Source of the DNA: Planctomycetota bacterium
Lineage (GTDB): Bacteria; Planctomycetota; Phycisphaerae; WQYP01
DNA length: 64,000 nt
Reading direction: 5' to 3'
Assembly: GCA_021790385.1 (NCBI GenBank)
Contig: JAJYDW010000007.1
Span: 10,483 to 74,482, forward strand
This document shows, piece after piece, positions 16,330 through 61,881 of this stretch. Made by a program: the position numbers and the translations under genes. The notes beneath the pieces were generated by a model. The model saw only the letters and a list, made by a program, of their open reading frames with translations. It was not told where the DNA came from and ran no database searches. Numbering within the stretch: position 1 is the stretch's first letter; each line of letters begins with the position of its first letter.

Positions 16330-16361
16330 GGTGGGGTCTCCTGCAATATAAGCACACATTT

Positions 16362-21249: not shown

Positions 21250-21317
21250 TGCATTCAATGAGTATCAGAGGCTTTTCAATAGTTTGAGTTTTGTGTACCT
21301 TTTTAGGAGGTTCTATC

Positions 21318-26512: not shown

Positions 26513-26558
26513 ATGTTTGTCGCTATGTTTGGGTCTGCTCTTACAAGGAGTGTTGATC

Positions 26559-30104: not shown

Positions 30105-30153
30105 CGCAGTGGCACACTGGCAAGGGTGCGTTGAATCGTATATCGTTAGCCCC

Positions 30154-31179
30154 ATGCGAAAGGTCAAAAAAACAACCCTCCATTCCGATGCGAACCTGCT
30201 GGAGGATGCCCGGCAAATCATAAAATCCGAAGCGCAAAGTCTTCTGGCCATCGCGGGACGCATGGATCAAGCCCTTGTGCGGGCTATACATCTTATTCAT
30301 GACCATATTGGGCCGGATTCCGCCGGGGTGCTGGTAGTCAGCGGTGTCGGCAAATCAGGGCTGGTGGGCCAGCGCATCAGTGCCAGCTTTGCCAGCACCG
30401 GCACGCCCTCGCATTTTCTTCATCCGGTGGAAGCGTTGCATGGAGATCTGGGGCGGGTACGCCGGCAGGATTTGGCCTTGCTGCTGTCTTATGGTGGAGA
30501 AACGGATGAATTAATCCGTCTGATGGACCACTTAAAACGCATGCGTGTACCCACCATCGCCATCACCAGTCAGGCGTCAAGCTCTCTGGGAAGGCTGGGG
30601 GATATCTGCATCGGGCTGGGTTCGCTGGAAGAAGCCTGCCCCCTGCGACTGGCCCCTACCACGAGTGTAACGTGCATCAGTGCCGTTGCCGATGCCCTGG
30701 TGCTGGGAGTGATGAGCCTGCGGCATTTTTCGGCGGAAGATTTTGCGGCTTTTCATCCAGCCGGTTCCCTGGGACGAAAATTGCTTCGGGTGCGCGATGC
30801 AATGAGTTTTGTGGTGGGTAAAAATATATCGGTTGCATCCATGAAATCGACGGTGCGGCAAGTGCTGGCCCAGGATAAGACCTTGGGCCGAAGGGCGGGA
30901 GCGGTTATTCTGGTGGACCCAAAGGGCGTATTGGCTGGAATATTCACCGATGGAGACCTTCGCCGCAAGCTCGGACAATATGCCGACCTGCTGGAAATGC
31001 CGATGGCCAAAGTAATGACGGTGAATCCAAAGGCTATCGGACATCAGGCGCTGGCCAGTGAAGCTCTGGCCCTGTTAAACCGCCACCGGATCGACGAATT
31101 ACCGGTAGTGGATGAGTGCAACCACCCGGTCGGGCTTATCGACGTGCAGGATTTGGTGACCCTGCGAGTGTTAGAATAA
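30154..31179 (+). CDS. kdsD: Arabinose-5-phosphate isomerase (KpsF/KdsD; SIS domain plus tandem CBS domains)
   Basis: SIS motif VVSGVGKSGLVGQRISASFASTGTPSHFLHP. C-terminal CBS pair. Start at MRKVKKT. Confidence 0.85.
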   Translation: MRKVKKTTLHSDANLLEDARQIIKSEAQSLLAIAGRMDQALVRAIHLIHDHIGPDSAGVLVVSGVGKSGLVGQRISASFASTGTPSHFLHPVEALHGDLGRVRRQDLALLLSYGGETDELIRLMDHLKRMRVPTIAITSQASSSLGRLGDICIGLGSLEEACPLRLAPTTSVTCISAVADALVLGVMSLRHFSAEDFAAFHPAGSLGRKLLRVRDAMSFVVGKNISVASMKSTVRQVLAQDKTLGRRAGAVILVDPKGVLAGIFTDGDLRRKLGQYADLLEMPMAKVMTVNPKAIGHQALASEALALLNRHRIDELPVVDECNHPVGLIDVQDLVTLRVLE

Positions 31180-31255
31180 ATCATGGTCGCCGCGTGATGG
31201 CCACCAGCGCAATAAGCAGCGACAAAAAAGGTCGATTGGAAGTACGGAGTTGCGG

Positions 31256-31756
31256 ATGGATATTCAGTTGCTGATTCTGGATGTGGATGGGGTGCTCACC
31301 GATGGTGGAATCATCCGCGATGACAGCGGCCAGCAGATTAAACGCTTTCATGTTCGTGATGGCGCAGGGATTGTGATGTGGCGACGCTTTAACCGGCAGG
31401 TAGCCATTATCACCGGAAAGGAAAGCCAGGTGGTGCAGCACCGTGCCGAAGAACTGGGAATTACCCAAGTCTACCAGAACGTTACCAATAAGCTGGAAGT
31501 GTATGGAGATTTACTCCAGCAATTGGGCTTGCAAGACGCGCAGGTGGCTTATGTGGGCGATGACCTGCCTGACCTGCCGGTGATGCGGCGCTGCGGCTGC
31601 CCGATTGCCGTAGCTGACGCCGTGCCGGAAGTGCGGGCTGCGGCCAAATATGTGACTGCTGCTCCCGGAGGATTCGGGGCGGTGCGGGATGCCATCGAAT
31701 GGCTCTGCAAGCAGATGAACATCTGGGACCAGGTGATAGCCCGGTACACGGGCTGA
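31256..31756 (+). CDS. kdsC: 3-deoxy-D-manno-octulosonate 8-phosphate phosphatase (KdsC, HAD superfamily)
   Basis: IQLLILDVDGVLTDGGI (HAD motif I); GDDLPDLPVM (motif III). 167 aa. Confidence 0.85.
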   Translation: MDIQLLILDVDGVLTDGGIIRDDSGQQIKRFHVRDGAGIVMWRRFNRQVAIITGKESQVVQHRAEELGITQVYQNVTNKLEVYGDLLQQLGLQDAQVAYVGDDLPDLPVMRRCGCPIAVADAVPEVRAAAKYVTAAPGGFGAVRDAIEWLCKQMNIWDQVIARYTG

Positions 31757-31812: not shown

Positions 31813-34800
31813 ATGAAAAAGAAAATTCTTCTATACATGGCAACTCTGGTCGTGGTGGCGGTCATTTTCGTCTGGGTGACGGGCCTCTTTTCCGGGGCCG
31901 GAGTGTGGCGCATTCATCATCAGCCGGTACATCCGGTTCCGGTCTTTACCACCAAAGGCATGGCCCACCTGGTGATGGAGGTGCGCAGTTCCAGGGGCGT
32001 GCTGGAATATGTGCTGCGCGCACGGCAAGCACTTCCCAAAGGCAACGGGCGATATCTGCTTACAGAACCAAGCATGCAATTTTTCAGCGCCAATAATCAA
32101 TCGACCGTCATTGCCAGCGACATGGGCGATGTGTATGTGGATCAGGTGGGCGGAGCGATGTCCAGCCACGTTTACCCGCGCAAGGGCAAACTTTTTGGCC
32201 ATCCGACCATCACCATGGGACCGGTGAAATCCTTTATTCACGGCGTGCGCAGGCGACAACCGGGACAAATGCAAATCCGGTTTTCCCGCCCGCTTTCGTT
32301 TAATTATCAACAGGGCATTATCAAGAGTTCAGGAGCCGTCCATCTGCGCAGTGATCAGGCGGACTTCGACGGTCTGGGGCTGACCGCCCAGATTGACCTG
32401 CCTCATAAAAAATTGACCTACCTGCGAATTGACAAAGGCATTCGGATGGTGCTGCGTCATGTCTACAATGCCGGCGGTTTTGGGCAAAATTCTGTATCCA
32501 GTCCACCGGCCGTCATCAGCCAGCCGCCGACAACGCCCACCTCCGCAGTGACTTCATCTGGAAAGGTGAACACGCCGTTGGCGGTAGTGGCCAACGCGCC
32601 GGTGGTGTATCGGCTGGATTTTATCGACCATGTGAAGGCGTTGATCGGCCCACAGGAGATTCAGGCTCCACGTTTTGTCGTTTATTTTTCCGGAAGTGCT
32701 GCCGCGCCTCCAAAACCAACACCCGCTGCAGTCCCCTTGACTGGCCCATCCGTGGCCACACCACCTGCCACCGGTACTGCGGTTCACTCTCATGTGGTCC
32801 ACACCCATCGCGATGCGGATCTGTTTCTCACCTGGACCGGCCCCATGATCATGCGTCCTGAGTTGCCTCACGGTATGCACCTGCTGGGACCGAAAGATAT
32901 TTTATTTGAAGCCCGTGGTCAGGTTGGCGAGCCGGTTCGGCTGACCGATGACAAAACCCTTTCCGCGTTGGCCCAAGAAGTGACCTATCAAACCCAGCCG
33001 CAAATTCTTGAACTTATGGCTGGTGTCGGCACTACCGTGGTGCTGAACAGCAGCCAATTCGGAACGGTTCATTGTCCTGAGGTAACTTTCAATCGTTTAA
33101 CCAACCGAGTTCTGCTGACCGGGCCGGGAACAGCCAAGCTTAGCTCGCCGCACGGCACAACATCCGGTGGCTGGCAAGCGACATGGCAAAAATTCGTCCA
33201 CCTCCGCCTCGCTCAGATGCCGGAAACCAGTCAATCAGGCCGCACCACGCTTGAGGTACGCCGTGTAACTCTACGTGGACAAGCACGGGTTAAACATGTC
33301 GGGCTGAGCATACATGGCGACGAACTGGCGGCCTGGCTCACTGCCGCTGGTCCGGCACACCACCCCCAGGCGTTGCAACGGCTTCTGGCCAAGGGACACG
33401 TGCAAGTGCTTTCACAAACGTCCGCGGCCAGGGGTGCTCCCGCCAACAGCAGCCGCATGACCTGCGATCAATTGTTGATGCAATCCACCCGCCAGGCCGG
33501 CCACCAAACACCTGTACCGCACAGCCTGCTGGCCACCGGCCATGTCCATCTGAAACTTATCCAGCCTGCTGCGAATACCGGCTCTACACCGGCAGTTTAC
33601 ACAATTATTACGCCGCACTTAGCGGCTATACTGGCTCCAACCCAGGTTCGGCCGGACCGTTCCGGTCATCTGCTATCTTCTTCCGGCCGCTTCACCGTTA
33701 CCCAGTTTAGCGCTACGGCTGGTGTGCATCTGGGTATCAGCAACATGGGCCGCCCCATCGCGGCGACGGCCACAGCAATGTCCGGCAATCGCCGCACAGG
33801 AATCATGGAACTCACCGGCGGAACCGGGGCCAATTCCTCCGCCTGGGCTGCGATTACGCAACAGGGCAATTTTATTACCGGCCCGGATCTGATTCTACAT
33901 CAAAAGGCGCAAGCAATTTTCGCACGCGGCCCCGGCAAGTTTGTCATCCTGCGTAAAAAATCCCCCGACACGGCGGCGAAACCGGGCGTACAAATCCTCT
34001 GGCAAAAATCCATGAAGTATCACGGTACCACCCACAAAGCCTTATTTGTTGGCCACGTGCTGGCCCAATTGCTCTCTCGGCCTGACCAGCAAAGTCGTTT
34101 AGCCTGCCATCAATTGGCCATTCTACTGGCAAAACCCGCAGCGGCACGGTCTGATGCCACCGGCCAATTGCATCTGGTGGATTTGCAGGCCCAAGGCGCA
34201 GCCGGCCGCCGACTCAATGCCATGAACGCCAGTTTTAACCCGCGAGGTCTGCTGCAAACCCGATTGTATATTCAGGGTAATTCTCTGCATTATAATGCCC
34301 TGCTTCGACGTTTGACTGTTGCCGGCCCCGGGCAGATGTCGCTGGAGGACTATCGGGGAGAATCAGCGGCCAGGCGTCGGGCTGCGGCCAAAAAACCGAT
34401 AGGTAATCCGCTGGGTCAGCCCCGTGGCCAAAGCGCTTTCGCCTGGTCGCAGGGGCTGCGCTACCACGGAAATACCGGCGTTTTGTCTCTGCGGGGCCGA
34501 GTTCGCCTGGTATATAAACCACTCCACCCGTTGCAGGCCTCGATGATAGGTGCGGTGGACAACTCCACCCAGGTCCAGCACCCTGCTGGTGCTGGGGCAG
34601 GCGAACGAGCCAGGTTGATCCTGCTGGACTGTCGACGATTGATGGCGCAGCTCACGCGGCCAGGACAGGCGAAAACCAGCGCGATGGAACTGGGCATGGG
34701 CGGTCCCATGAAACTTGATTTCGTGCAGGCACAGGCTGCGGCGTTGGAGCTTCTGGGAATTCGGATGACTGCTGATGTCCTGAAATTTAATACCGCTAAA

Positions 34801-34959
34801 GAGCAGGCTACTGCAATGGGCTTAAATGGCCACGAAGCCGTGGTCAGCAGTAGAAATGGCCAGGCGCACGGTCAGGCCCGCAAAATAATATGGAACCTGG
34901 CTAAAGGCCGGACAGGCTTGATATTTATTCAACCGCGTGGAACGATTTCCACACACTAA
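31813..34959 (+). CDS. Large N-terminally membrane-anchored envelope protein (1048 aa). The N-terminal region is possibly an OstA/LptC-LptA-like fold; the remainder is unknown.
   Basis: Single N-terminal TM (LLYMATLVVVAVIFVWVTGLF). The segment after it shows the beta-jellyroll-like pattern ..YLLTEPSMQFF..NQSTVIASDMGDVYVD.. seen in LptC/LptA. The position immediately after kdsC mirrors kdsD-kdsC-lptC-lptA synteny. The functional assignment is an inference (about 0.3). Confidence 0.6.
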   Translation: MKKKILLYMATLVVVAVIFVWVTGLFSGAGVWRIHHQPVHPVPVFTTKGMAHLVMEVRSSRGVLEYVLRARQALPKGNGRYLLTEPSMQFFSANNQSTVIASDMGDVYVDQVGGAMSSHVYPRKGKLFGHPTITMGPVKSFIHGVRRRQPGQMQIRFSRPLSFNYQQGIIKSSGAVHLRSDQADFDGLGLTAQIDLPHKKLTYLRIDKGIRMVLRHVYNAGGFGQNSVSSPPAVISQPPTTPTSAVTSSGKVNTPLAVVANAPVVYRLDFIDHVKALIGPQEIQAPRFVVYFSGSAAAPPKPTPAAVPLTGPSVATPPATGTAVHSHVVHTHRDADLFLTWTGPMIMRPELPHGMHLLGPKDILFEARGQVGEPVRLTDDKTLSALAQEVTYQTQPQILELMAGVGTTVVLNSSQFGTVHCPEVTFNRLTNRVLLTGPGTAKLSSPHGTTSGGWQATWQKFVHLRLAQMPETSQSGRTTLEVRRVTLRGQARVKHVGLSIHGDELAAWLTAAGPAHHPQALQRLLAKGHVQVLSQTSAARGAPANSSRMTCDQLLMQSTRQAGHQTPVPHSLLATGHVHLKLIQPAANTGSTPAVYTIITPHLAAILAPTQVRPDRSGHLLSSSGRFTVTQFSATAGVHLGISNMGRPIAATATAMSGNRRTGIMELTGGTGANSSAWAAITQQGNFITGPDLILHQKAQAIFARGPGKFVILRKKSPDTAAKPGVQILWQKSMKYHGTTHKALFVGHVLAQLLSRPDQQSRLACHQLAILLAKPAAARSDATGQLHLVDLQAQGAAGRRLNAMNASFNPRGLLQTRLYIQGNSLHYNALLRRLTVAGPGQMSLEDYRGESAARRRAAAKKPIGNPLGQPRGQSAFAWSQGLRYHGNTGVLSLRGRVRLVYKPLHPLQASMIGAVDNSTQVQHPAGAGAGERARLILLDCRRLMAQLTRPGQAKTSAMELGMGGPMKLDFVQAQAAALELLGIRMTADVLKFNTAKEQATAMGLNGHEAVVSSRNGQAHGQARKIIWNLAKGRTGLIFIQPRGTISTH

Positions 34960-34965
34960 GCGGAA

Positions 34966-37900
34966 ATGGCGGACAAAAAGTCGGATTTACTTATGGCAAA
35001 ACCAGGATTGGTCTGGGTAACCATTGTTGCTTCAGGTTTGGCTTGCGGCGGCGGCGCGTCTGGCGTGCACGCGGCAACCACCACTGCTACCGCTATGGTC
35101 AAGGGCAGAGTTCAGCCCGCGACTGAAGCTCAACTGCGTTCTTCCGTGTCCTCCCCCCAAGACATTCCAGCCTCGGTGCAAACCATTGACCAATATATTC
35201 AGACCGTGGCCGGTTTTGGTCCCAACCGTTCCGCCGGCAGTGCCGGTGCGCAGCAGACTGGCAGGTTCTATATCAACAAGCTGGCCTCCGGCAGCGGTCG
35301 GCCGGTGTGGCGTCAACCATTTTCGATGGTGGTTCCACATACACAATATTGCCGGGCGGTGGATCCGCAACATCCAGCCATGCCCATAAAGCTATTTTTA
35401 ATGCGCCCTTGCGGTGGTCAAATTGCGGCATTGCCAAGTATGCAGAGTCATACTGCGCCGGTGGTATATGTGGGTCGCGGCCGCCTGCCGGATCTGCGAG
35501 GTCTTCACATTGCCCATGCCTGGGTGGCCATGAATATATCAGGCTCGCGCAACTGGCTGACCATCGCCGGGCTGGGTGCCCGTGGAATAATCTTCCTGGG
35601 TTCCGCGCAAGACAGCTTCACCTCTTTTGCTCCCACCGCCACGACCGTCCCGGTAACTATTCCGCGGTTTTATACCCAAAATCCCACGTTGGCAGCGGCC
35701 ATTCGCACCGGTAAAATCCGCAGCCTTAACATTCAATGGCGTGCTGAGTGGGTGCGCCGCATCGGCAATAATCTGCTGTGCCTGATTCCGCCGACCAATT
35801 CCGCCAAGAATGCGGCATCCGCTCCGTCAAAATCGCTGATTATTCTCACTGCCCGCTACGATGCTTCCAGCTATGTGTTGGGCCGCAGTCCCGGCGCGCA
35901 GCAGGACATGGGAGCCGCCGTTCTCGCGGCACTGGCTCCGCAAATCGCCCAGGCTCAACTGGGCCATCCCGTGCTTATTGCGCTGCTGGCTGACAATACC
36001 TGGCAGTTTACCGGCGAGCAGCAACTCCTTCGCATGCTCACGACTACGCCTGTCACACTGACATCGCGACTGGCTCGGCGCAGAATCGCCTACCACAAAG
36101 CCAGTCGTATGTTGACCCAATTGCGGGATATCGCCGCTACCAGAAATGTAAGCGATATACAACTTGGCTCGTCTCTGGCCCAGACCATCGGCAATCAGAT
36201 CCAGGCGGATGTCTCAAAATTACAGTCTGCCCTGGATATTCAGTTGCTCAAGCCCATCGTAGATCGCCACCACCAGGTGAAACTGCTGGAAAAACGCAAA
36301 CTTGATCTACTTTTCGCCCACAATGCCGTTCATACGCACCATCATCTGGCCGCGTCGCAGCAGGTTATTTTGCGTGCTGTTGAGCAACTGATACCACAGT
36401 GGCAGATGGAAGCCCGGCGGTCCCAAGAACGTGTGCACAAAGTCCAGGCGTGGCGCGCCATCCGCCGTAAATTAGGTCCGGACAAGCTGAAAATTCTGGT
36501 GCAGTTGAACCTGCATTTGACCAGCCATGGCCGGGAGTTCGGTTTTATTACCCATTCCTCCTGGATGACCAACGATTTCAGCAACGAGATGTCCCAGTTT
36601 GACAGCGCCATCACCCGTAATTATTTTGGCCAAGCCCGTCGCCATGCCAAAAAGATGGGGCTTCCTTTTCGTTGCGCCTTTAATCCGCTACCTGCGGAAT
36701 CAGTTGATTCCGTCCATAATTACTTTCCCATTCCCATGGGATTCTGCACCGATTATGCCTTGTGGCGGGGTCTGCCTGGCGGTACCTTTGCCACGCTTTG
36801 CGACGACAGCGGCCTGATTGATACGCCCAACGATACCACCAGCCGAATCGATTGGCAGTCCATAGCCCGGCAGGTGGCGGCCTTGAAGCTGCTGCTGCTG
36901 GGCAGTCAGCGTTACCATTCGCTCGGAGCGCTCACTGATCCTGATTTTTCCGGTCGTGTAACCCCGCATGATCAAACCAGCAATCAAACCTTTACCGTAC
37001 TCCGACGCAGCTTCGGCCAGGCGGTGGCATCACTGGGTGCCCCGAATTATCTGGCCGGGGCGGTTTTTATTAACGGCGGTGGTCCCTTGCCACCGGTGTT
37101 GGAGGGTACCCGCCGCAGCAGTTGGCAATTCACTCATTTCAATGGCTCAGTCCACCTTCATCATCTGCCCTACGGCTGGTTCCAGTACGAATTGCAGGTA
37201 TTTAAATTTGCCTCCGACGGCATGCCGAAAAGAGTACTCGCGGGCAACCTGGCGGCACAAGGTTATTCCGATGGATTATTCATACCCGACAGTTCCACCA
37301 CTCTCCAGTGTCTGGTCTTTAAAAGCCGTCCCATCAATCTTTACGGACTTTTTGACCCACGGTACCTCGATTATATCGATCAACTGCAGATTCTTGACGC
37401 CCGTAAGGGTGGCGCTCCCAAGTACGATCAAAGTTTCACTGCCGGGATGGCCGGAATCGCCTACGTGCAGCCGGGTGTACCCTGGCAACTGCTGGCCTCA
37501 CGTGGAGCCGTGGCCAACCGCATGATTCTCATCAACGCCTCGCGGGCGCACCCGCTGGGGACCGGCTTTCTCCACAATGGCGCGACCTATCTGGGCCCGC
37601 TCGCCTGGAGAACCGCCACTGATATGAACGCCATTGACACGCATCGCCGTGCGGTGCTGCAAAAGTTCGGCATCACCAGCAACGTCATCAATACTTTTTT
37701 TGAAGCCGCGAAAACGCATCTTCAAGCCGGCCAAAAAGCCCGCAATACCCAACATTACAACCGCTGGCTGGGTCAGGCCGCCGCCGCCTGGAGTCTGCAA
37801 ATCCAGGCTTACCACGCCCTGATCAGCGATTCCAATGGCATTGTTTATGGTGCTATTTTTCTGCTGCTGGGCCTGATTCCCTTCAGCTACTTTCTTGAAC

Positions 37901-39942
37901 GCCTGCTTATCGGTTCCCCCAATGTATACCGCCAGATTGGCGGATTTGCCTTTATTTTCGCCATCATGACCGCGGTGCTGGCCTCCTTCCATCCAGCCTT
38001 TCGCATCACCAAGGCCCCGCTGATGATCCTGTTAGCCTTTGTCATATTGCTTCTCTCCGCAGTGGTTATTCACATTCTGTTCCAAAGATTTGAAAATGAA
38101 CTCGGCAACATGCGCGGTGCCAGATCCAGTTCCCACAAAGATACCCTCCGCGGCAGTGCCGTCTTTGGGGCTGCCCTGCGGCTGGGCCTGTCCAATATGC
38201 GCCGCCGTGGCACCCGCACCACTCTTACCCTGATTACGCTGGTCCTGCTCACCTTCACCCTGCTTTGTTTTACCAGCTTGCGGCACAACCTGACCCTGGT
38301 GCCCAATACCGAACCCAATGCACCCAAGCATCCTGCCGTCGGCATTCTGTTGCGCCAGAGAGCCTGGCAGCCCATACCTGAAATTGGGCTACAACTAACC
38401 CGGGAAATCGTCGGCCGCAGAGGTATCGTTGCCCCTGTTTTCTGGTACGCCTCGACCAACCCGCAAAGCACCTGGCATATTGCCATCCGGCCTGCCAGAT
38501 TCTCTCCCATCCACACTTCCAGTCCCAACGTCAGTGGCCTGGTAGGCATTTCACCGCAGGCGGCCGCCTTCTTTAAATCGCCGGCCGCCAGTATTGCGTC
38601 ACAGTTGTCGGGATGGAAGAAGCTTCTGGCGGGACAACCTGTATGTTTTCTGCCCGCGAATTTCCACGGCCACCCTTTCCACCGCAATCAAAAGGTGCGG
38701 ATTCTGGGCCGCAGCCTGACGATTGCCGGGTTCTTTCACACGCGAAGCTTTATGGTAAGGCAAATCACCGGTGAACCCATCTTCCCCGTAGATGCCGCCG
38801 CCAGTGCCCAGGGCAGTCAAACGCCGGCCAATACGAGTCCCAGCCAGATTGCCGCCATGCGTGAGCCTAGCCTTACTTTTTTACGCCCCGCGGAGGTTGC
38901 CATACTACCCGCCGACATTGTCCGCAGTTTCGGAGGCCATTTCACCAGTGCCATGCTCTGGCCGCACGGTGCCACACCCCAAACCATCTTTCGCGAGGCT
39001 CGCCACCTGGCCCGGCGCTGCGCCTTCTCGGTCATCGCTTCCAATGGCCAGCGGGTGCTTTCGTATAACGCCACCGCCAGCGCCGGGGTCAACGATCTTT
39101 CCTCGGTATTGGTACCCCTGGCTATTGCGGCGGTGATTGTGCTCAACACCATGCTTGGCGCTGTATCCGAACGTACCCGCGAAATTCATGTGTACACATC
39201 GCTGGGGTTGGCCCCCAGTCACGTGGGAATGTTGTTTCTGGCCGAAGCCGCCGCACTCGGAACGCTGGGCGTGGTTTTCGGGTATATCTGCGGCCAGGCC
39301 GCAGCCACCCTGCTGACCTACACTCATCTAATTTCCGGAGTGCACCTCAATTATTCCTCCATGTCGGCCATCGGTACCATGGGCCTGGTCCTGGCGCTGG
39401 TCATGGCATCCACGATCTGGCCGGCGCGCATGGCATCGCGCGTGGCGGCACCGAGTCTGCAACGTCACTGGAAACTCCCCGAACCCGTCGGAGACATTTT
39501 AAAAGTAGATCTCCCCTTTACCGTCAATGCCGTCGCCGCCCACGGTATCTGCAAGTTTATTGAAGAATTCTTCAGTGACGTTTCTCAAAGCGGCGTGGGT
39601 CGCTTTACCGCCGAAAAAATCTCCGCTTTTACCCACCAAAGCATTCACGGAATTTCCGCCCAGGTGTGGCTGGCCCCCTACGATCTGGGGGTCATTCAAG
39701 ATTTCTGGCTGGCCATCCATCCGACGCCAGAACCCAACGTCTTTGAAGTTAAACTGACCCTGCGCCGCCAAGCCGGCAGTCCCGCCACCTGGCTCCGGCT
39801 TAACCGGCCATTTATGGTCGAGGTGCGAAAACAGTTTTTATTGTGGCGTTCCGTATCGCCGGAAATGGTGCATGAATACGTGACAGGCTCGGAACAGATG
39901 TTCGCGCACGCCGAGGAAACTTCGCCACCGGTTGCAGCATAA
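34966..39942 (+). CDS. Giant (1658 aa) fusion protein: signal peptide, then a PA domain plus a degenerate M28 peptidase-like ectodomain (about 35140-36000), then a linker, extra TM helices, and an FtsX/MacB-type 4-TM permease domain with a periplasmic loop (about 38100-39450), then a cytoplasmic tail of about 160 aa
   Basis: PA-like VVYVGRGRLPDLRGLHIAHAWVAMNISGSRNWLTIAGLGARGIIFL. M28-like NNLLCLIP...SLIILTARYDASS...GRSPGAQQDMGAAVLAALA...HPVLIALLADN, with the metal-binding D/E residues replaced (QQD, ADN). FtsX hallmark LGAVSERTREIHVYTSLGLAP and the TM1 motif RRRGTRTTLTLITLVLL. No Walker A anywhere in the protein. Confidence 0.75.
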   Translation: MADKKSDLLMAKPGLVWVTIVASGLACGGGASGVHAATTTATAMVKGRVQPATEAQLRSSVSSPQDIPASVQTIDQYIQTVAGFGPNRSAGSAGAQQTGRFYINKLASGSGRPVWRQPFSMVVPHTQYCRAVDPQHPAMPIKLFLMRPCGGQIAALPSMQSHTAPVVYVGRGRLPDLRGLHIAHAWVAMNISGSRNWLTIAGLGARGIIFLGSAQDSFTSFAPTATTVPVTIPRFYTQNPTLAAAIRTGKIRSLNIQWRAEWVRRIGNNLLCLIPPTNSAKNAASAPSKSLIILTARYDASSYVLGRSPGAQQDMGAAVLAALAPQIAQAQLGHPVLIALLADNTWQFTGEQQLLRMLTTTPVTLTSRLARRRIAYHKASRMLTQLRDIAATRNVSDIQLGSSLAQTIGNQIQADVSKLQSALDIQLLKPIVDRHHQVKLLEKRKLDLLFAHNAVHTHHHLAASQQVILRAVEQLIPQWQMEARRSQERVHKVQAWRAIRRKLGPDKLKILVQLNLHLTSHGREFGFITHSSWMTNDFSNEMSQFDSAITRNYFGQARRHAKKMGLPFRCAFNPLPAESVDSVHNYFPIPMGFCTDYALWRGLPGGTFATLCDDSGLIDTPNDTTSRIDWQSIARQVAALKLLLLGSQRYHSLGALTDPDFSGRVTPHDQTSNQTFTVLRRSFGQAVASLGAPNYLAGAVFINGGGPLPPVLEGTRRSSWQFTHFNGSVHLHHLPYGWFQYELQVFKFASDGMPKRVLAGNLAAQGYSDGLFIPDSSTTLQCLVFKSRPINLYGLFDPRYLDYIDQLQILDARKGGAPKYDQSFTAGMAGIAYVQPGVPWQLLASRGAVANRMILINASRAHPLGTGFLHNGATYLGPLAWRTATDMNAIDTHRRAVLQKFGITSNVINTFFEAAKTHLQAGQKARNTQHYNRWLGQAAAAWSLQIQAYHALISDSNGIVYGAIFLLLGLIPFSYFLERLLIGSPNVYRQIGGFAFIFAIMTAVLASFHPAFRITKAPLMILLAFVILLLSAVVIHILFQRFENELGNMRGARSSSHKDTLRGSAVFGAALRLGLSNMRRRGTRTTLTLITLVLLTFTLLCFTSLRHNLTLVPNTEPNAPKHPAVGILLRQRAWQPIPEIGLQLTREIVGRRGIVAPVFWYASTNPQSTWHIAIRPARFSPIHTSSPNVSGLVGISPQAAAFFKSPAASIASQLSGWKKLLAGQPVCFLPANFHGHPFHRNQKVRILGRSLTIAGFFHTRSFMVRQITGEPIFPVDAAASAQGSQTPANTSPSQIAAMREPSLTFLRPAEVAILPADIVRSFGGHFTSAMLWPHGATPQTIFREARHLARRCAFSVIASNGQRVLSYNATASAGVNDLSSVLVPLAIAAVIVLNTMLGAVSERTREIHVYTSLGLAPSHVGMLFLAEAAALGTLGVVFGYICGQAAATLLTYTHLISGVHLNYSSMSAIGTMGLVLALVMASTIWPARMASRVAAPSLQRHWKLPEPVGDILKVDLPFTVNAVAAHGICKFIEEFFSDVSQSGVGRFTAEKISAFTHQSIHGISAQVWLAPYDLGVIQDFWLAIHPTPEPNVFEVKLTLRRQAGSPATWLRLNRPFMVEVRKQFLLWRSVSPEMVHEYVTGSEQMFAHAEETSPPVAA

Positions 39943-39952
39943 GGCTTTTTTG

Positions 39953-41947
39953 ATGACGGAAGACAAGGAACTTGCCCAATACCGGTCGCTGATGGCTACG
40001 CCGTCGGTTTTTGCCGACGGCTTTAACCTTAAATCCGTCATTGGCTGCTTGTTCATCGGCCTGGTGATGATGCCCGGGTCAATGTATCTTGCACTGATGA
40101 CCGGCGGAGGCCTTGGCCCGGCCGCCCAATGGGTTACCACCATCCTCTTTATTGAACTGGCCCGCCGGTCGTTTACCAGCCTCAAAAGCCCGGAAATTTT
40201 TATCCTCTATTACATGGCCGGCGTGGCGGTGCTTTCTCCGTTCAGCAACCTGCTTTTCACGCAATATTATATTCAATCCAGTGCCGCGCAGGCCTTCGGC
40301 ATTTCCCATCTGATACCATCGTGGGTCGCACCAGGACCAAAAATTCTCGCCCAACGCACATTTTTTACCGGTGCCTGGGTTATTCCCATGGTTCTCATGG
40401 GTGTGACTTATCTGTTTTCCCGCCTGAACAATTTTGGTCTGGGGTACGTACTATACCGCGTTACCAGCGACGTTGAAAAATTGCCTTTTCCCATGGCACC
40501 CATCGGAGCGATGGGCATTACCGCCCTGGCCGAAAGCTCCAGCGGCAACGAAACCTGGCGATGGCGGGTTTTTTCCATCGGCGGCATGATCGGCCTGGTG
40601 TATGGGGCACTTTGGCTGGGTGTCCCGGCCATCACCGGCACCTTTCTCCAGAAGCCCATCCAACCCATTCCGTTGGTCTTCGCCGATTTCACGCAATACA
40701 CCCAGAGCTTTCTCCCCGGCGTGCCCATGGCAGTGAGTTTTGACATCACCAATGTGATGGTCGGATTTGTTTTGCCATTTTCCGCGGTGCTCGGTACGAC
40801 CATTGCCACCATTGCGACCTGGCTGGCCACACCGCTGCTGGTCCATTGGCATCAAATTCCCGACTGGAAGCCAGGTATGGATGCGGTGAACACCTCCTGG
40901 GTGGGGTATATCGACGTTTACATGAGCGTTGGCATCGGCTTGGCGGTGGCCATCGCCCTGATCGGTTTTTTTCATATTTTTTCGACCATACGCCGCCGCG
41001 GGAAAAGCAGCGAGATGTTGTCTCCTGCCAGCGACAAGGATACCTCCAGCCCATCTGCATGGCAGCGGCTGATACATCCTCCGGCGGGCCGCGGCGATTT
41101 TTCCCTCTGGATCGGCATAGGCATTTACCTTGCCAGCACGATCACTTCTACGGTGCTATGTAAGATGCTGGTGCCCACCTTTCCCCTGTGGCTGCTGCTG
41201 GCGTACGGTTTTGGTTATACGCCCGTGATGAGCTACGTAGCCTCGCGTATGGAAGGCATTGCCGGCCAGTGGGTGGATATTCCGATGGTTCAGCAAGCCA
41301 CTTTTGTGCTGGCGCATAAATTCGGCTACAACGGCGTGGGAATCTGGTTTGCCCCCATACCCCTCAATAATTTCGCGGGCCAGGTGGTTAGCTTCCGCAC
41401 CCAGGAACTCACCGGAACCAAAATATCCAGTGTGGTCAAGGCTGAACTGGTCATGTTCCCCGTGGTCATTATCAGCAGCATTATCTTTTCCCAGTACCTG
41501 TGGCGCATCGCGCCTATTCCCTCGCCCGCGTACCCCTTCGCCAATCAAATCTGGACTCTGACCGCCAAACAGATGGCCTTGTATCAATCGGCCACGCTCC
41601 CCGGTGGAAATTCCATGTTCATGGATGCCATCAAGTGGCCTTATATTTTCGGGGCGGTCATCGGCGGCATTGGGCTTTATGCCGTCTTGGCGAGATTCGG
41701 GGCGCCGGTTATGCTCTGTTATGGACTGGTACGCGGCCTGGGTGCGGGGTTGGCTCCATGGGTGTTTCCGCAATTGCTTGGAGCTCTCCTGGGTAGATAC
41801 TATTTTCAAAAGAAAATTGGCGTGACGAAATGGCGGCAGTATGCGCCGGTACTGGCGGCCGGATTTGCCTGTGGAATCGGACTCATCAGTATGTTGTCGT
41901 TTGGATTTGATTTGGTCAGCAAGGCCGTGTTTCAGTTGCCGTATTAG
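39953..41947 (+). CDS. Polytopic integral membrane protein (about 665 aa, at least 12 predicted TM segments), uncharacterised; paralog of the next gene
   Basis: Start overlaps the stop of the giant gene (translationally coupled). Hydrophobic throughout. C-terminal LLGRYYFQKKIG...APVLAAGFACGIGLISM resembles LLKAVILRWGGVELYKKARPFFFGLIIGEAIANVFWM of the next ORF. Confidence 0.6.
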   Translation: MTEDKELAQYRSLMATPSVFADGFNLKSVIGCLFIGLVMMPGSMYLALMTGGGLGPAAQWVTTILFIELARRSFTSLKSPEIFILYYMAGVAVLSPFSNLLFTQYYIQSSAAQAFGISHLIPSWVAPGPKILAQRTFFTGAWVIPMVLMGVTYLFSRLNNFGLGYVLYRVTSDVEKLPFPMAPIGAMGITALAESSSGNETWRWRVFSIGGMIGLVYGALWLGVPAITGTFLQKPIQPIPLVFADFTQYTQSFLPGVPMAVSFDITNVMVGFVLPFSAVLGTTIATIATWLATPLLVHWHQIPDWKPGMDAVNTSWVGYIDVYMSVGIGLAVAIALIGFFHIFSTIRRRGKSSEMLSPASDKDTSSPSAWQRLIHPPAGRGDFSLWIGIGIYLASTITSTVLCKMLVPTFPLWLLLAYGFGYTPVMSYVASRMEGIAGQWVDIPMVQQATFVLAHKFGYNGVGIWFAPIPLNNFAGQVVSFRTQELTGTKISSVVKAELVMFPVVIISSIIFSQYLWRIAPIPSPAYPFANQIWTLTAKQMALYQSATLPGGNSMFMDAIKWPYIFGAVIGGIGLYAVLARFGAPVMLCYGLVRGLGAGLAPWVFPQLLGALLGRYYFQKKIGVTKWRQYAPVLAAGFACGIGLISMLSFGFDLVSKAVFQLPY

Positions 41948-41965: not shown

Positions 41966-44005
41966 GTGACCATTCGATGGACCGTTTTTGGATGTAAGAT
42001 CCGCATGAGTAAGATGCCTCAATCGCCGAATCTCGGCACCGATAAAATTACGTACAGTGTTACATTTCGCAGCGCCCTGCTGGGCATCGGACTGACCCTG
42101 CTGGTGGCCATTTTTACCCCTTTCAATGACTACGTAATGCAAAACACCTATTTCGTGGGTAACAATCTACCCATGTCGGTTATTTTCTGTATTTTGCTAT
42201 TGTCACTCGTAGTGAACCCGCTGCTGGGTTCCCGCCGATTCCGCCGGGGTGAAATGATCGTGGCTTTCAGCATGATGCTCATCGCCTGCGCTCTGCCCAG
42301 TTCCGGACTATATCGCTACCTATATTCCACACTGGCTGATTCCGTCTACCAGGCAGGCCAAAATTCTTCCTTCATCCCATTTGTCCATGCCCTGCCATCC
42401 TGGATGCTGGCCTCCAAAAATCCGCATAGCTGGGTGTTACGGGACTTTTACCTTGGCTTTAGCAGTCATTCCCGCCATTCTTATTGGGATGTACTCCAAG
42501 CCTGGGCTTTGCCAGTAGTAACCTGGGCCTGTTTCCTGCTGGGCATGTTTGGTGCCATCATTTTTTTCTGCCTGATCATGCGCAAACAATGGGTTCAGCG
42601 CGAACGTCTGCCCTACCCTCTGGCCACGATTCCCCTGGAATTATTAGCGGATCCGGAACCGGGCCGACGCATCAATGCACTGTGGCGTTCGCCGCTGCTT
42701 TGGATTGCCGCCGGCCTTGTTTTTCTCATTGATATTTATAACGGATCGCTTCTCTTCCCGATTTTTCATAATCTGCCCCCCATTCCCACCACTTATAATC
42801 TGTCCAAAGATTTTTCCCAGTTTCCATGGAATGCCATTCTTTGGGCGATTCAACGCAATCGCATTTATTTTTCCGTAGTCGGTGTAACCTTTTTCATCCC
42901 GCTGGAAATTTCATTTTCAATATGGTTTTTCTTTCTGGCCTACAATTTCGGTTATGTTTTTCTCGTGGACAGCGGTTCCAATGCCAATCTCTCCACCATG
43001 ACCATCTGGCAAACGCCGGGCATGTATGCCGCTTATTTCATCATCACCTTGTGGATTGTCCGCCGGCATATTCGCGAAGTGTTCATATCCACCATTCGCT
43101 TCCTACCGCGACAACCGGATGAGTTTTTACCCTATTGGATCAGCGTCTGGGGATTTTTGCTTTGCGTGGCCATAGCCACAGCATTTCTCGCCTTTGCCGG
43201 ATTAAACTGGTGGTGCGGTCTGCTGGTGGTGGCTTTACTACTGTTTTACTGCATGATGCTTACCCGCGTTATTGCCGAAGCCGGCCTTTTAATGGTGGAC
43301 TTCTCCAGCGGGCCATTTCACGCCCTGACACTGCTGTTTTCCTCCAATCCGTCCGCTCTTTCCATCCGCCAGTGGATGGTGGCCCGCTTGAGCATCTCCA
43401 ACCTTTGGACTGATCAGCGGGAAAACCTCATGCCCTTCGCTTCCGATGTGCTGCGCATGGGTTCTGACGTTCAACCCTACCGCAAAGTCCGTTACGTAAC
43501 CCTGCTGTTTGGAGCCTTGGTCCTGTGTTTTGTCGTGGCCGGGACAACAAACCTGCTGCTGAGTTATAAGTATGGTGCCAGCACTTTCAATGGCTATAGT
43601 GCCGTCGGTTTTCCATACAACACCGTGGAAAGTGCCATCCACGCAGCACAGCCCAACACCGCTTCCACCTCGCCGATGACTCATCTGCTGTACGTTATCG
43701 AAGGCGCAGTGGCCATGACCGCGGTTGCCGGATCGCGGCTCCTTTTCGCCGACAGCCCCTTCCACCCTATCGCGCTGCTGTTCCTCAACAGCTACGCCAT
43801 GGACGTGTTCTGGTTTTCCGTTTTCATCGGCTGGTTGCTTAAAGCGGTGATCTTGCGCTGGGGTGGCGTAGAGCTTTATAAAAAGGCCCGCCCCTTTTTC
43901 TTCGGCCTGATCATTGGCGAAGCCATCGCTAACGTCTTCTGGATGTTCATCGGATTTTTCGTGGGCTGGCCGTCTGGAATTCCGTTCTGGCTTCTCCCCG
44001 GATAA
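41966..44005 (+). CDS. Polytopic integral membrane protein (about 670 aa), uncharacterised; paralog of the preceding gene
   Basis: ORF-track start is GTG at 41966; an ATG alternative is at about 42005. Many TM helices. Starts 19 nt after the preceding stop. Confidence 0.6.
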   Translation: MTIRWTVFGCKIRMSKMPQSPNLGTDKITYSVTFRSALLGIGLTLLVAIFTPFNDYVMQNTYFVGNNLPMSVIFCILLLSLVVNPLLGSRRFRRGEMIVAFSMMLIACALPSSGLYRYLYSTLADSVYQAGQNSSFIPFVHALPSWMLASKNPHSWVLRDFYLGFSSHSRHSYWDVLQAWALPVVTWACFLLGMFGAIIFFCLIMRKQWVQRERLPYPLATIPLELLADPEPGRRINALWRSPLLWIAAGLVFLIDIYNGSLLFPIFHNLPPIPTTYNLSKDFSQFPWNAILWAIQRNRIYFSVVGVTFFIPLEISFSIWFFFLAYNFGYVFLVDSGSNANLSTMTIWQTPGMYAAYFIITLWIVRRHIREVFISTIRFLPRQPDEFLPYWISVWGFLLCVAIATAFLAFAGLNWWCGLLVVALLLFYCMMLTRVIAEAGLLMVDFSSGPFHALTLLFSSNPSALSIRQWMVARLSISNLWTDQRENLMPFASDVLRMGSDVQPYRKVRYVTLLFGALVLCFVVAGTTNLLLSYKYGASTFNGYSAVGFPYNTVESAIHAAQPNTASTSPMTHLLYVIEGAVAMTAVAGSRLLFADSPFHPIALLFLNSYAMDVFWFSVFIGWLLKAVILRWGGVELYKKARPFFFGLIIGEAIANVFWMFIGFFVGWPSGIPFWLLPG

Positions 44006-45619: not shown

Positions 45620-45888
45620 TGGAATGAAGGCTTCCCAAAACGGGGCATGCTCATGCCGACCGTTGAAGATTTATCGCGATGGATCGTTGTATTGTTCCCC
45701 TCCGGCCGTGAGGCCGGGGAAGGATGCAGGGTAAGCCTTGCGCCTACTGCCGCAACGATTTCCAGTCAGACCGACATCAAATCGAGCAAAGAGGTGCTTA
45801 TGTGACTGTGCGGATAATTTAGCTCAATGGAAAGGTCCGTTTTCCACGTTTTTACATTTCTCCCGTGTGGAGAGAATTGGAGTTTATC

Positions 45889-46797
45889 ATGAGTAACTTA
45901 CGAAACAAATGTATCGCCATGGCCGTTGGTACCGGTATGCTCGGTGGCATTGCCACCGCTGGAGCCACGGAAATTCCGGCCGGAAACCTGTTTTATCAAA
46001 ATGGGGCCGCCACGGCACCGAATGTATCAACCGTTATCAATAATCCCCAAAATATGAGCGGCGGGTCTTGGGTTGGCGGGACCAATTACTGGGTTGGCGG
46101 TAACAGTCCGGTGCTGGACGGCAGCGTTTCCACAATATGGAACGCCGGCACATTTAGCGGCGGCGGTATGTGCAATGTCGCCATCTCACAGGGTTCGTAC
46201 GATAGCAGCACCTCAACTTTTACATCGGTACCGTTTGGCGCTATCGCAACGATACGTATCTGGGCGGAAAATTATATCAATAGCGACGGCAGCACATGGA
46301 GTTCGATGCCCCAAGTGGTCGCGGTAGGATATACCACCAACAGCAACCTCACTTCGACCATTCGCAACGGCTACTCATTCAATAGCGGCACGGCGGGTAC
46401 CCTGCCGCCAACTTGGAGCACCATGGCCACGATTTCTTCTGTCAATGGCGGCACACCGGGCACACCTTTCGATCCGACGGATTACCCGACCGCTTCGGGT
46501 TGGGTGGCCGGGGATTTTTCGCAAGGCACGGTTACCGGTTTAAATAGTGGACACAGCACGCTGGCCTACATGGATCTGACTGTGAATATTCCCGCTGGTG
46601 CTACCAGTGTCATGATCTCGTTTGGACAGGACAGCGGCATCGCCACTGCACCCAGCCCCAGCTATTACAGCCCCGGCGGCCTGGCAATTGCCGATATCCA
46701 GGCCTATGCTCCGACCATTCCCGAACCCGCTTCGTTGGGTCTATTGGCCTTTGGCGGTCTGGGGCTGTTGTTGCTCAAGCGTCGTAAAACGGCTTGA
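45889..46797 (+). CDS. PEP-CTERM sorting-domain secreted protein (third copy in the window)
   Basis: Signal peptide MSNLRNKCIAMAVGTGMLGGIATAGA. C-terminal PTIPEPASLGLLAFGGLGLLLLKRRKTA. Confidence 0.75.
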   Translation: MSNLRNKCIAMAVGTGMLGGIATAGATEIPAGNLFYQNGAATAPNVSTVINNPQNMSGGSWVGGTNYWVGGNSPVLDGSVSTIWNAGTFSGGGMCNVAISQGSYDSSTSTFTSVPFGAIATIRIWAENYINSDGSTWSSMPQVVAVGYTTNSNLTSTIRNGYSFNSGTAGTLPPTWSTMATISSVNGGTPGTPFDPTDYPTASGWVAGDFSQGTVTGLNSGHSTLAYMDLTVNIPAGATSVMISFGQDSGIATAPSPSYYSPGGLAIADIQAYAPTIPEPASLGLLAFGGLGLLLLKRRKTA

Positions 46798-46874: not shown

Positions 46875-47864
46875 ATGAATCCGATAAAGCGACGACAAAC
46901 TAAGGAGTTTGCATTCAGTTCTACGGCTGCCCATTTTTGGGGGTCAATGCACGATCGCAGACCCAGAGCATTTACCCTGGTGGAACTGCTGGTGGTCATT
47001 TCCATCATTGCCATTCTTATCTCCTTGCTGCTTCCCGCCCTGGCCAAGGCCCGCTTTTGGGCCAACGTGACGGTATGCGCCAACAACCAGCGGCAGATTT
47101 ACCTGGCCACCGCCATGTACGCCAACGACAATCTGGGGTTCATGCCGGGCTGTGATGCCTTTCAAAGCGTGAGTGGGGGAACCTACGCCACATCCTACGG
47201 CGGCTATCCGTGGGAATTTCAGGATTATTGGTACAGCAATCCCATCTTACCTTCAGGCGTGGTGTGGTCGCAAACAGTACGCTGGTACGGGGTGGGAGTT
47301 TTGATTGGTCAAAAGTACATGCCCCCCACCAATGCCGTGGAATGTCCGGATTTTGCCATTTCACCACAAGCCCAGATCGGCCAGAAATGGAGCAACTACA
47401 CGCAAAATGGCGTGTTTCTGCTGCCGAAGGAATACAACACCGCAGCCGCCGCCGGCGACAGCCCCGAACAGATCGCCAACGCCTGCTTCGGACAAGGCTC
47501 TTACGTGCTTGATACCGAACCGTATTACAACACCTTTGATCCCGGCAATGAATCCCATGGCCGTATCGGACTGCCCGGCACCGAGGGTGGATGGTGGTCG
47601 CCGGGCGGATTGCTCAAAGTGCCGCACATTACTGCGCTGATTATGTGTCTCACGACCTATGCTGATATCAACCCGCAACCGGCGACCATCACGCACGAGA
47701 TGAAGGGCGTCAACTGTACGTATATTGACGGGCACACCCAGTGGCTGCCCATCCACGCGGCGACTTGGAGTTATTTCAATTCCATCGGTTTCCCCGCCAG
47801 TTCCGGCGGCGACATGCGCGGTGCCTATACCTTTTTCCCGTGGGCCACGCAGCAAGGATGGTAA
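46875..47864 (+). CDS. Prepilin-type N-terminal methylation domain protein of the DUF1559 (H-X9-DG) family, second copy
   Basis: RBS AAAGGAG then [30 protein letters not shown]-terminal [13 protein letters not shown]9-DG. Confidence 0.8.
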
Positions 47865-52111: not shown

Positions 52112-52166
52112 CTTTTACCGGATATGGTTTATTGCTTCCTTCACTTTTTTACAACAAGGATTCGTT

Positions 52167-55727: not shown

Positions 55728-55773
55728 ACCCGTTTGCCTTGCAAGTTGAGCAACTTCTCGGAGAATATGCCAC

Positions 55774-57816: not shown

Positions 57817-57829
57817 ATAAAGGGAACCG

Positions 57830-60409: not shown

Positions 60410-60528
60410 TTTGCCGGGCCAGGCTCATCAGCCAAGCCCTCTTGAACAAAGGCTTCCGCCTGCCGCATTTCATCGGAAGCCTGTCGCGCACAAAATGCTG
60501 CACCGATTATGAAAGCGATTAAAATTTT

Positions 60529-61851: not shown

Positions 61852-61881
61852 TATGATTCCAATACAAAAAAGGAGCCTTCC

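Follow-up and report, generated by a model that had tools for sequence, protein, structure and literature searches.

The 64,000-nt stretch of contig JAJYDW010000007.1 (assembly GCA_021790385.1, positions 10,483 to 74,482, forward strand; hereafter the window), which derives from a Planctomycetota bacterium of the class Phycisphaerae, carries a 1658-aa open reading frame (ORF) that a first-pass annotation made from the sequence alone had described as a catalytically dead PA/M28 peptidase-like ectodomain fused to a MacB/FtsX permease. As summarized in Table 1, the gene for this protein, termed here the giant, is a member of the string kdsD-kdsC-LptC/LptA-like-giant-OPT-like-DUF6785, all on one strand with gaps of -11 to 71 nt, and its product was dissected into a large M28-like head, a stalk, additional transmembrane (TM) helices, an FtsX-type permease module, and a C-terminal domain.

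The ORF proved to be a single, intact one as first annotated, and all the motifs quoted from it, VVYVGRGRL, GARGIIFL, NNLLCLIP, LTARYDAS, and LIALLADN as well as GAQQDMGAAVLAALA, RRRGTRTTLTLI, and SERTREIHVYTSLGL, were found within it. Public gene calls (P0001) begin at the second in-frame ATG given in Table 1; this 27-nt difference in the start (34966 vs 34993) is immaterial to the present findings. A protein homology search recovered full-length relatives of 26-88% identity, and within the Planctomycetota clade the giant was conserved at 40-88% identity, which confirmed that the protein is real and conserved far beyond chance. The explanation that the fusion of peptidase and permease genes is an assembly or frameshift error had nothing in its favor, some database entries being fragments labelled 'M28 family peptidase, partial', and it was refuted by the recurrence of the same single-ORF architecture, with a typical length of 1450-1750 aa, in independent assemblies of many phyla; its probability is practically nil.

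Table 1. Features of the giant permease and of its gene string in the window (~, approximate boundary; AF2, AlphaFold2).
Feature	Coordinates	Strand	Residues	Basis or remark
kdsD (SIS and CBS domains) and kdsC (HAD fold)	30109..31756	+		head of the same-strand string
LptC/LptA-like protein	31813..34959	+	1048 aa	immediately upstream of the giant; specific to the Planctomycetota clade
Giant permease ORF	34966..39942	+	1658 aa	ATG start; 1649 aa from in-frame ATG at 34993
N-terminal hydrophobic segment (signal peptide or signal anchor)	35005..35061	+	~14-32	hydropathy
M28-like fold, N-terminal part	35098..35412	+	~45-149	R88 and G91 family-conserved
PA-like insert	35413..35745	+	~150-260	with VVYVGRGRL and GARGIIFL; in register with 2ek8 and 6hc6
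M28-like core, first half	35746..36045	+	~261-360	D299 and G350 conserved
Helical insert (~145 aa, four long helices)	36046..36480	+	~361-505	AF2 secondary structure
M28-like core, second half	36481..36930	+	~506-655	NLHLT (H517); conserved DTPxD motif (D619)
Beta-rich region	36931..37605	+	~656-880	low model confidence
Helical stalk into the membrane	37606..37830	+	~881-955	runs into first extra TM helix
Three extra TM helices	37831..38097	+	~956-1044	hydropathy, family alignment
Basic cytoplasmic linker	38098..38223	+	1045-1086	9 K/R vs 2 D/E; precedes FtsX TM1
FtsX TM1 and MacB/LolCE-type periplasmic domain	38224..39099	+	1087-1105 and 1106-1378	
FtsX TM2-TM4 with cytoplasmic coupling helix	39100..39435	+		conserved SERTREIHVY; PF02687 covers aa 1382-1492
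Conserved cytoplasmic C-terminal alpha/beta domain	39436..39939	+	~1491-1658	WLAPYDLG motif
OPT-like polytopic membrane protein	39953..41947	+	664-671 aa	commonest partner in the family
DUF6785+DUF6784 membrane protein	41966..44005	+		second downstream partner

Predicted fold of the ectodomain

Scans of the window protein against Pfam and NCBIfam returned no M28 or PA match even at E<=1, and the M28/PA assignment of the head thus rests on its relatives, on a family profile, and on the predicted fold. Among the relatives, the distant members P0007-P0009 passed the Pfam M28 gathering score (21.3) at 29-34 bits, as did P0031, P0038, and P0052, the match in P0038 spanning positions 12-189 of 193. 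Pfam PA (PF02225) was seen only below its threshold and only in P0008 and P0052 (18.9 and 18.3 bits vs 23.9), and P0004 gave a weak match to Pfam Nicastrin. A family profile built from eight ectodomains and run against the PDB aligned in register, over approximately 290 positions, with the Aneurinibacillus aminopeptidase 2ek8 (E 1.2e-15) and with B. subtilis BSAP/YwaD 6hc6 (7e-12), and gave weaker matches to the Aeromonas aminopeptidase, Nicalin (~5e-5), and TfR1 (~0.4). With an insert-spliced profile, the HMMER alignment extended marginally into the second M28 half.

Furthermore, an AF2 model of aa 45-960 was built from an eight-sequence alignment (mean pLDDT 68, good to approximately aa 650). 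When this model was searched with Foldseek, 2ek8 came first (8.7e-17), accompanied by BSAP, P. aeruginosa PaAP, and 3iib; the PA-M28 aminopeptidases ranged from 1e-17 to 1e-12 and were followed by TfR1 and GCPII at E ~1e-11, in agreement with what the first-pass annotation had proposed to check by AlphaFold. The assignment of aa ~45-655 to a PA-containing M28 aminopeptidase fold split by a helical insert is therefore supported at the level of profile and model. The first-pass annotation had placed this head in the N-terminal 350 aa; the fold was upheld by both approaches, but its extent was not, the predicted core resuming beyond the insert at aa ~506-655. Similarly, the enlarged, covalently attached arm that it had put at about 900 aa is indeed present and measures approximately 920 aa. 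The helical insert, the beta-rich region, the stalk, the three extra TM helices, the basic linker, and the C-terminal domain had been missing from that description. Alignment gaps showed that P0008 and P0009 lack the insert or have only a short one, and weak CarboxypepD_reg-like matches to the beta-rich region were obtained in relatives. It was also observed that P0031, P0038, and P0052 (2769-3053 aa) bear an N-terminal extension of approximately 1100-1250 aa with Big_5 Ig-like domains before the PA/M28-like head.

Loss of the catalytic residues

The canonical M28 site was numbered after the Aeromonas aminopeptidase, the sequence of which agreed with the fragment present in the profile-search alignment, and the equivalent positions were taken from HMMER alignments to 6hc6 and 2ek8 together with motif matches. 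All six positions were found to be replaced in the window protein. The metal ligands His97, Glu152, Asp179, and His256 correspond to R297, T345, H517 (LNLHLT vs LQLDMT), and D619 (IDTPNDT vs HTPNDT), respectively, the bridging ligand Asp117 to Q313, with Q312 adjacent, and the catalytic base Glu151 to N344, while the structural Asp99 is retained as D299. Since the HTPNDT/DTPnDt match was not significant alone in the spliced-profile HMMER alignment, the equivalents of Asp179 and His256 rest on motif and fold alignment and on P0038. Replacement of the zinc-ligand and catalytic positions had been claimed in the first-pass annotation from the segments QQD and ADN, of which the former was correctly identified and the latter was one residue out of register; the Glu-Glu pair aligns to N344-T345.

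The 80-sequence family alignment revealed that the first His ligand is gone in 79 members, and that D299 and the DTPxD motif are near-invariant. In the 71 members from outside Planctomycetota, E/D312 is found in 66, H344 in 67, and D/H517 in 69; Y/F297 and D619 are conserved as well, Gly taking the place of D619 in the H517 subgroup, and the commonest combinations are YEH[F/H]DD and FDHAHG. This constellation resembles a site that has been remodelled and is under selection, perhaps one that binds a single metal. All nine Planctomycetota sequences, on the other hand, lack both E/D312 and H344. Judged from these alignments, the window protein has lost the canonical M28 site together with the family's own alternative site and cannot be a canonical co-catalytic M28 enzyme. 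With an M28 fold predicted and the catalytic residues missing, it was hence classified as a pseudo-peptidase and not as an M28 peptidase.

The same alignment bears on the alternative that the head still works as a hydrolase, its metal site remodelled and possibly mononuclear, and trims peptides at the membrane surface for uptake via the neighbouring OPT-like permeases. The strong conservation of the non-canonical E/D312, H344, D/H517, and D619 outside Planctomycetota in approximately 10 phyla, the near-invariant D299 and DTPxD, the distant members above the Pfam M28 threshold, and the relation of the partner proteins to peptide handling are all in its favor. The window protein, however, with its R297, Q312, N344, T345, and H517, possesses neither the canonical nor the family-specific site, and the first His ligand has disappeared from nearly the whole family. 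For the window protein we regard an active hydrolase as quite unlikely; the likelihood is higher for other clades.

Membrane half and topology

The only Pfam domain detected on the giant was FtsX (PF02687, aa 1382-1492; E 1.3e-12, 48.3 bits vs a cut-off of 25.5), and no LptF/LptG-type (YjgP/YjgQ) permease was detected; the Pfam scan proposed with the first-pass annotation thus bore out FtsX, but neither M28 nor PA, on the window sequence. A phmmer search of the PDB matched YtrF, Spr0695, MacB, LolC, and LolF, and the FtsX region gave a weak match to NCBIfam MacB. An AF2 model of aa 930-1658, likewise built from an eight-sequence alignment (mean pLDDT 68.5), matched LolC/E, MacB, HrtB, and YbbP at full length in Foldseek at E 1e-11 to 1e-6, the structural matches to FtsX and YbbP being significant. 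Pfam, phmmer, and Foldseek were therefore all in good agreement with the C-terminal FtsX domain of MacB type that had first been annotated. A complete ABC (ATP-binding cassette) permease module of type VII is present, consisting of TM1, a Porter/Sabre-type periplasmic domain of approximately 273 aa between TM1 and TM2 (first estimated at about 250 aa), TM2, a coupling helix, TM3, and TM4.

Hydropathy and the positive-inside rule predict that the ectodomain arm lies outside, as does the FtsX periplasmic domain, and that the inner side holds the linker, the coupling helix, and the C-terminal domain. MacB-type permeases have an N-in/C-in topology, which the prediction matches; as the first-pass annotation had implied, the M28-like head would share the outer side with the FtsX periplasmic domain. 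Sequence, fold, and topology thus place the giant in the FtsX/MacB/LolCE superfamily of permeases. The coupling-helix residues E1402, R1403, E1406, and I1407 (ERxxEI) are at least 93% conserved in the 80-sequence alignment and are kept in the window protein, and the extra TM helices carry E978 and H1009-P-A-F, conserved to at least the same degree in the 80 sequences. In the subclade formed by the window protein and L010, the FtsX periplasmic domain carries substitutions at two near-invariant positions, R1158 and E1199. The C-terminal domain was modelled as beta-alpha-beta4-alpha2, which is not Rossmann-like and can tentatively be described as helix-grip-like.

The membrane half also matched the PADLOC profile 'CARF_m8--CARF_LolE_TM' (PDLC01991) at aa 962-1543 (window 37849-39594, E 5e-39), as did all 10 family members tested (E 1e-40 to 1e-59), and a second profile, 'CARF_m8--CARF_Beta-galactosidase_LolE_TM', matched the three TM helices, FtsX, and the proximal C-terminal module at E 2.5e-26. 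An anti-phage signalling effector related to the CARF-LolE membrane proteins could be envisaged from these matches. They are, however, confined to the three TM helices, FtsX, and the C-terminal module; the last approximately 125 profile positions (687-810) were reached in none of the 10 members, the C-terminal domain as modelled lacks a Rossmann-like fold, Pfam detected neither cas nor cyclase domains in window ORFs of >=200 aa, the window shows no CRISPR or cOA context, and the partner proteins had no PADLOC matches. The effector reading was rejected on these grounds as highly improbable, and no defence role is indicated for the family here. The membrane module has thus already been catalogued in another fusion context. 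Sister architectures with other sensor domains or ectodomains are implied, and the name of the second profile hints at one whose ectodomain has another hydrolase fold.

Distribution of the family and its partner genes

When the ectodomain profile alone was searched exhaustively, 6,846 matches scored E<=1e-3, and 1,311 50%-identity clusters reached E<=1e-30. In a scan that took one genome for each GTDB species, tblastn confirmed at least 572 stretches, from which 80 loci were kept, 69 matching most of the protein length and 11 being cut by contig ends. A second, word-indexed homology search with the alignment as query added no further proteins, and the family was sized by the exhaustive search and the genome scan. 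Members occur in Planctomycetota, Armatimonadota, Latescibacterota, Gemmatimonadota, Desulfobacterota, and other phyla; the closest genome match to the giant among the matches listed was the Planctomycetota metagenome-assembled genome contig JAJYZF010000007.1 (84% identity). Publicly, the members are named 'ABC transporter permease', 'M28 family peptidase, partial', or 'hypothetical'. The first-pass annotation knew of no description of the domain combination: our search of a literature library likewise found none of an FtsX-M28 fusion, of a type VII ABC system with a peptidase, or of DUF6785, but the combination is abundant in databases and its membrane module is catalogued in PADLOC. What the present analysis adds to that annotation is the further parts of the protein, the size and spread of the family, its conserved partners, the loss of the family's own site in one clade, the lack of a nearby ATPase, the linkage to Lpt/Kdo genes, and the relationship to the PADLOC profiles.

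For the partner survey, ORFs were called in 88 loci (13 Planctomycetota and 75 other) and searched with the partner proteins. The OPT-like permease was encoded at 65 of the 88 loci, mostly immediately downstream of the giant, followed by the DUF6785 protein (40/88), an ATPase of approximately 245 aa (38/88), a minimal FtsX protein of approximately 230 aa (37/88), a PqqD-like protein (30/88), and an approximately 295-aa protein of no known family, designated unk295 (28/88). The ATPase, whose best NCBIfam matches were LolD, MacB, DevA, and FtsE, was adjacent at 38 of the 75 non-Planctomycetota loci, and the minimal FtsX has a periplasmic loop of approximately 45 aa. Gene orders that were typical include smallFtsX-ATPase-giant-DUF6785-OPT-like-unk200-unk295-PqqD in Desulfobacterota and giant-OPT-like-unk295-PqqD-smallFtsX-ATPase, for example at Armatimonadota and Nitrospirota loci. 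Precomputed annotation of L007 and L009 agreed with the OPT assignment. The OPT-like and DUF6785 families were aligned by hhalign over their first ~230 columns with a probability of 78% (E 1.7e-5) and share an ERLP(F/Y)P motif, so that these proteins, each of approximately 665 aa, look like remote paralogues.

Three accompanying proteins, unk295, unk200, and unk229, had no match in Pfam, NCBIfam, PADLOC, or the PDB. The first is conserved in L004, L005, L023, L040, L052, and others (e.g., L004:19198-20452) with an SxxDH motif in the alignment, and its gene in L004 overlaps the next one, encoding a PqqD-like (RRE-type) protein, by 11 nt. In Desulfobacterota, unk200, a protein of approximately 200 aa and of no known family, accompanies unk295 and the PqqD-like protein. 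The third, unk229, is a 229-aa predicted lipoprotein (lipobox ILAGC) encoded at L002:9315-10004 and L014:9093-9839 in the P0004 subclade only, where its gene overlaps the start of the giant in the place of the LptC-like gene.

Linkage to kds and LptC/LptA-like genes in Phycisphaerae

The 1048-aa protein encoded 7 nt upstream of the giant has a TM helix and an LptC domain (25 bits) at its N-terminal end and an LptA/OstA (LptD_N) domain (22.7 bits) at its C-terminal end. Long stretches rich in Pro, Thr, and Ala connect the two ends, and the protein is apparently a fusion or extension of the LptC-LptA kind. Its gene was found directly upstream of the giant in 7 of the 13 Planctomycetota loci and in none of the 75 others. 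The kdsD-kdsC-LptC-like-giant synteny is kept at 42-84% identity in L010 and L016, and L011 retains kdsC, whereas L007 has kept the LptC-like/giant pair with the kds genes gone; the operon linkage of the giant to kdsD-kdsC-lptC in the window, L010, L016, and L011 is positional and does not by itself demonstrate a shared function. No lptB follows the LptC/LptA-like gene in the operon of the window. A scan for promoters and terminators gave the same counts as shuffled sequence and therefore cannot delimit the operon.

The gene order kdsD-kdsC-lptC-lptA-lptB is that of proteobacteria, and the cluster of the window would fill the slot taken there by lptA-lptB. This raises the alternative that the Phycisphaerae giant pulls a membrane-anchored Kdo-glycolipid (lipopolysaccharide, LPS, or its precursor), or else a lipoprotein, out of the inner membrane and hands it over to the LptC/LptA-like beta-jellyroll protein. 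The tight packing of the kdsD-kdsC-LptC/LptA-like-giant genes and the survival of the synteny in relatives of 42-44% identity (L016, L011) are consistent with such a hand-off, and type VII ABC systems such as LolCDE, HrtBA, and YbbAP-TesA are known to extract hydrophobic cargo (PMC12646458). The synteny may nevertheless be plain inheritance within one class, the permease is of the FtsX type and not of the LptF/G type, and the OPT-like and DUF6785 partners would be left unexplained. In addition, because no LptC-like partner occurs at any of the 75 non-Planctomycetota loci, the hand-off of lipid or LPS cannot be the core function of the family. We consider this alternative unlikely on balance.

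Proposed function and comparison with known systems

We consider it probable, although by a modest measure, that the giant serves as the large (signature) permease subunit in a so far uncharacterised mechanotransmission system of the type VII (MacB/LolCE/FtsX-like) ABC kind, its pseudo-peptidase head being the binding module. Our confidence is high for the architecture and the class and low for the ligand and the direction. The gene order lolC-lolD-lolE of E. coli is mirrored by the smallFtsX-ATPase-giant order of the relatives, and on that account the giant would pair with the minimal FtsX of approximately 230 aa and two copies of the LolD-like ATPase, as in LolCDE. Cytoplasmic ATP binding and hydrolysis would then be passed via the TM1/TM2 stalk to the periplasmic domain, a mechanotransmission for which MacB, LolCDE, FtsEX-EnvC, and YbbAP-TesA provide precedents (PMC5985334; PMC7668044; PMC12646458). 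The tethered head would act as a non-catalytic module for the binding of a ligand or substrate, its position or occupancy being coupled to the ATP cycle. The most plausible ligand is a peptide or protein terminus, to which three independent partner types point, namely a head of aminopeptidase fold, permeases that are OPT-like, and a peptide chaperone that is PqqD-like; the adjacent OPT-like and DUF6785 permeases could provide the translocation route. In the window's Phycisphaerae lineage, the module is located within the kdsD-kdsC-LptC/LptA-like operon, and its ATPase would have to be encoded elsewhere.

Several observations weigh against this proposal. The 64-kb window encodes neither an ABC ATPase nor a small FtsX, and none lies up to 10 kb away from the giant at any of the 13 Planctomycetota loci, so that the energy source of the window protein is assumed; the PqqD-like protein and unk295 are also absent from the window. 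The OPT assignment is weak, in that 2 of 14 orthologues match Pfam OPT (best E 2e-9), and a PDB search found no relative for the OPT-like partner or for the DUF6785 protein. The AF2 models are of moderate quality (mean pLDDT 68), poor at aa ~660-880, and unreliable in their inter-domain geometry. Finally, the residues conserved outside the window's clade imply that the head may not be dead there, and a pure-scaffold role may thus hold for the window's clade only.

The missing ATPase and small FtsX also speak for a different view, in which the Planctomycetota giant is an orphaned, ATP-independent relic, either decaying or persisting only to provide the OPT-like and DUF6785 permeases with a membrane scaffold or a receptor. 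The loss of E/D312 and H344 from the clade, and of R1158 and E1199 from the subclade of the window and L010, points in the same direction. Nevertheless, the ORF has remained intact over 1658 codons at the identities within the clade given above, and the family-conserved residues of the coupling helix and of the FtsX TM helices are retained in the window protein. Moreover, an adjacent ATPase is also missing at 17 of 41 (~40%) well-flanked non-Planctomycetota loci, which indicates that non-adjacency does not mean loss. We give the relic little credence and keep to an ATP-driven mechanotransmission permease as the preferred reading.

The resemblance to LolCDE lies in the two unlike permeases of the relatives, which flank one LolD-like ATPase in a permease-ATPase-permease order. 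The giant differs, however, by its ectodomain of approximately 920 extra aa, its three extra TM helices, and its cytoplasmic C-terminal domain; the second permease of the family is minimal, with its short periplasmic loop, and no LolA/LolB-type partner was found among the neighbours of the giant, which are the OPT-like and DUF6785 permeases instead. FtsEX-EnvC-amidase and YbbAP-TesA resemble the proposed system in concept, as cytoplasmic ATP hydrolysis acts on a periplasmic hydrolase-fold partner (PMC7668044; PMC12646458), but the hydrolase-fold module of the giant (M28/PA) is covalently fused and devoid of catalytic residues, and the giant has no homology to EnvC/LytM or TesA. With MacB the giant shares the weak NCBIfam match of its FtsX region; in contrast to MacB, it has no fused nucleotide-binding domain and no adjacent MacA/TolC-type genes, and adds the ectodomain, three TM helices, and the C-terminal domain.

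By profile and predicted fold, the closest relatives of the head are the PA-M28 aminopeptidases 2ek8, 6hc6, and PaAP (8acr), which have the PA insert at the same place. Unlike these secreted enzymes, the head of the giant is membrane-tethered within a permease, has every metal ligand and the catalytic Glu replaced, and is split by the insert of approximately 145 aa. TfR1, nicastrin, and Nicalin are ligand-less M28(+PA) folds that serve as receptor or substrate-gating ectodomains of membrane complexes. These proteins are eukaryotic, their sites degenerated independently, and they are not fused to a transporter; with the ectodomain profile, TfR1 (E ~0.4) and Nicalin (~5e-5) were weaker than the bacterial 2ek8 (1e-15). 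Because the nearest relatives of the head are bacterial PA-aminopeptidases, its likeness to TfR1, nicastrin, and Nicalin, including the putative binding-scaffold role that the first-pass annotation had compared with transferrin-receptor-like pseudo-peptidases, is to be taken as a functional analogy only.

A bolder version of the proposal combines the lines above into an envelope machine of many phyla, in which a LolCDE-like motor drives a tethered pseudo-aminopeptidase head that binds the termini of peptides or proteins and passes them on to two OPT-superfamily permeases with a cytoplasmic PqqD-like chaperone, and which in Phycisphaerae has been rewired to kdsD-kdsC and delivers a Kdo-glycolipid to an LptC-LptA bridge as a MacB-type alternative or adjunct to LptB2FG. 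As a whole, this scheme is speculative, and we rate it as doubtful.

To our knowledge, few type VII ABC systems are understood, namely MacAB-TolC, LolCDE, FtsEX-EnvC, HrtBA, BceAB, and YbbAP-TesA, and each has shown another way of using cytoplasmic ATP outside the membrane. The present family, with more than 1,300 50%-identity clusters, most of which belong to uncultured phyla, would add a type VII version in which the effector is fused to the permease and has a peptidase fold that is remodelled or, in the window's clade, fully disabled. By analogy with the transferrin receptor, nicastrin, and Nicalin, the giant may represent a clean bacterial case of the pseudo-enzyme-as-receptor theme. The partner set (OPT-like, DUF6785/6784, and PqqD-like) furthermore places two Pfam DUFs, along with several proteins that lack a family, in a concrete and testable context, and the kdsD-kdsC/LptC-LptA-like linkage in Phycisphaerae bears on the movement of envelope glycolipids across the unusual periplasm of planctomycetes.

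Other genes in the window

The remainder of the window contains two sets of glycan-degradation genes. One, on the reverse strand at 13408-19118, encodes a GH31 enzyme and an alpha-amylase/pullulanase-like enzyme, and the other, a same-strand run on the forward strand at 48104-62889, encodes GH123-like, GH31/melibiase-like, and GH95 enzymes, an alpha-L-fucosidase, and a GDSL esterase. Two further protein types agree with an origin in Planctomycetota. PEP-CTERM-type C-terminal sorting tails were recognized in the products of 21291-22154, 23293-26385, and 45865-46797, one being confirmed by Pfam and two identified by eye. Prepilin-like proteins with an N-terminal methylation motif, putatively DUF1559-like, are encoded at 26517-27662 and 46875-47864.

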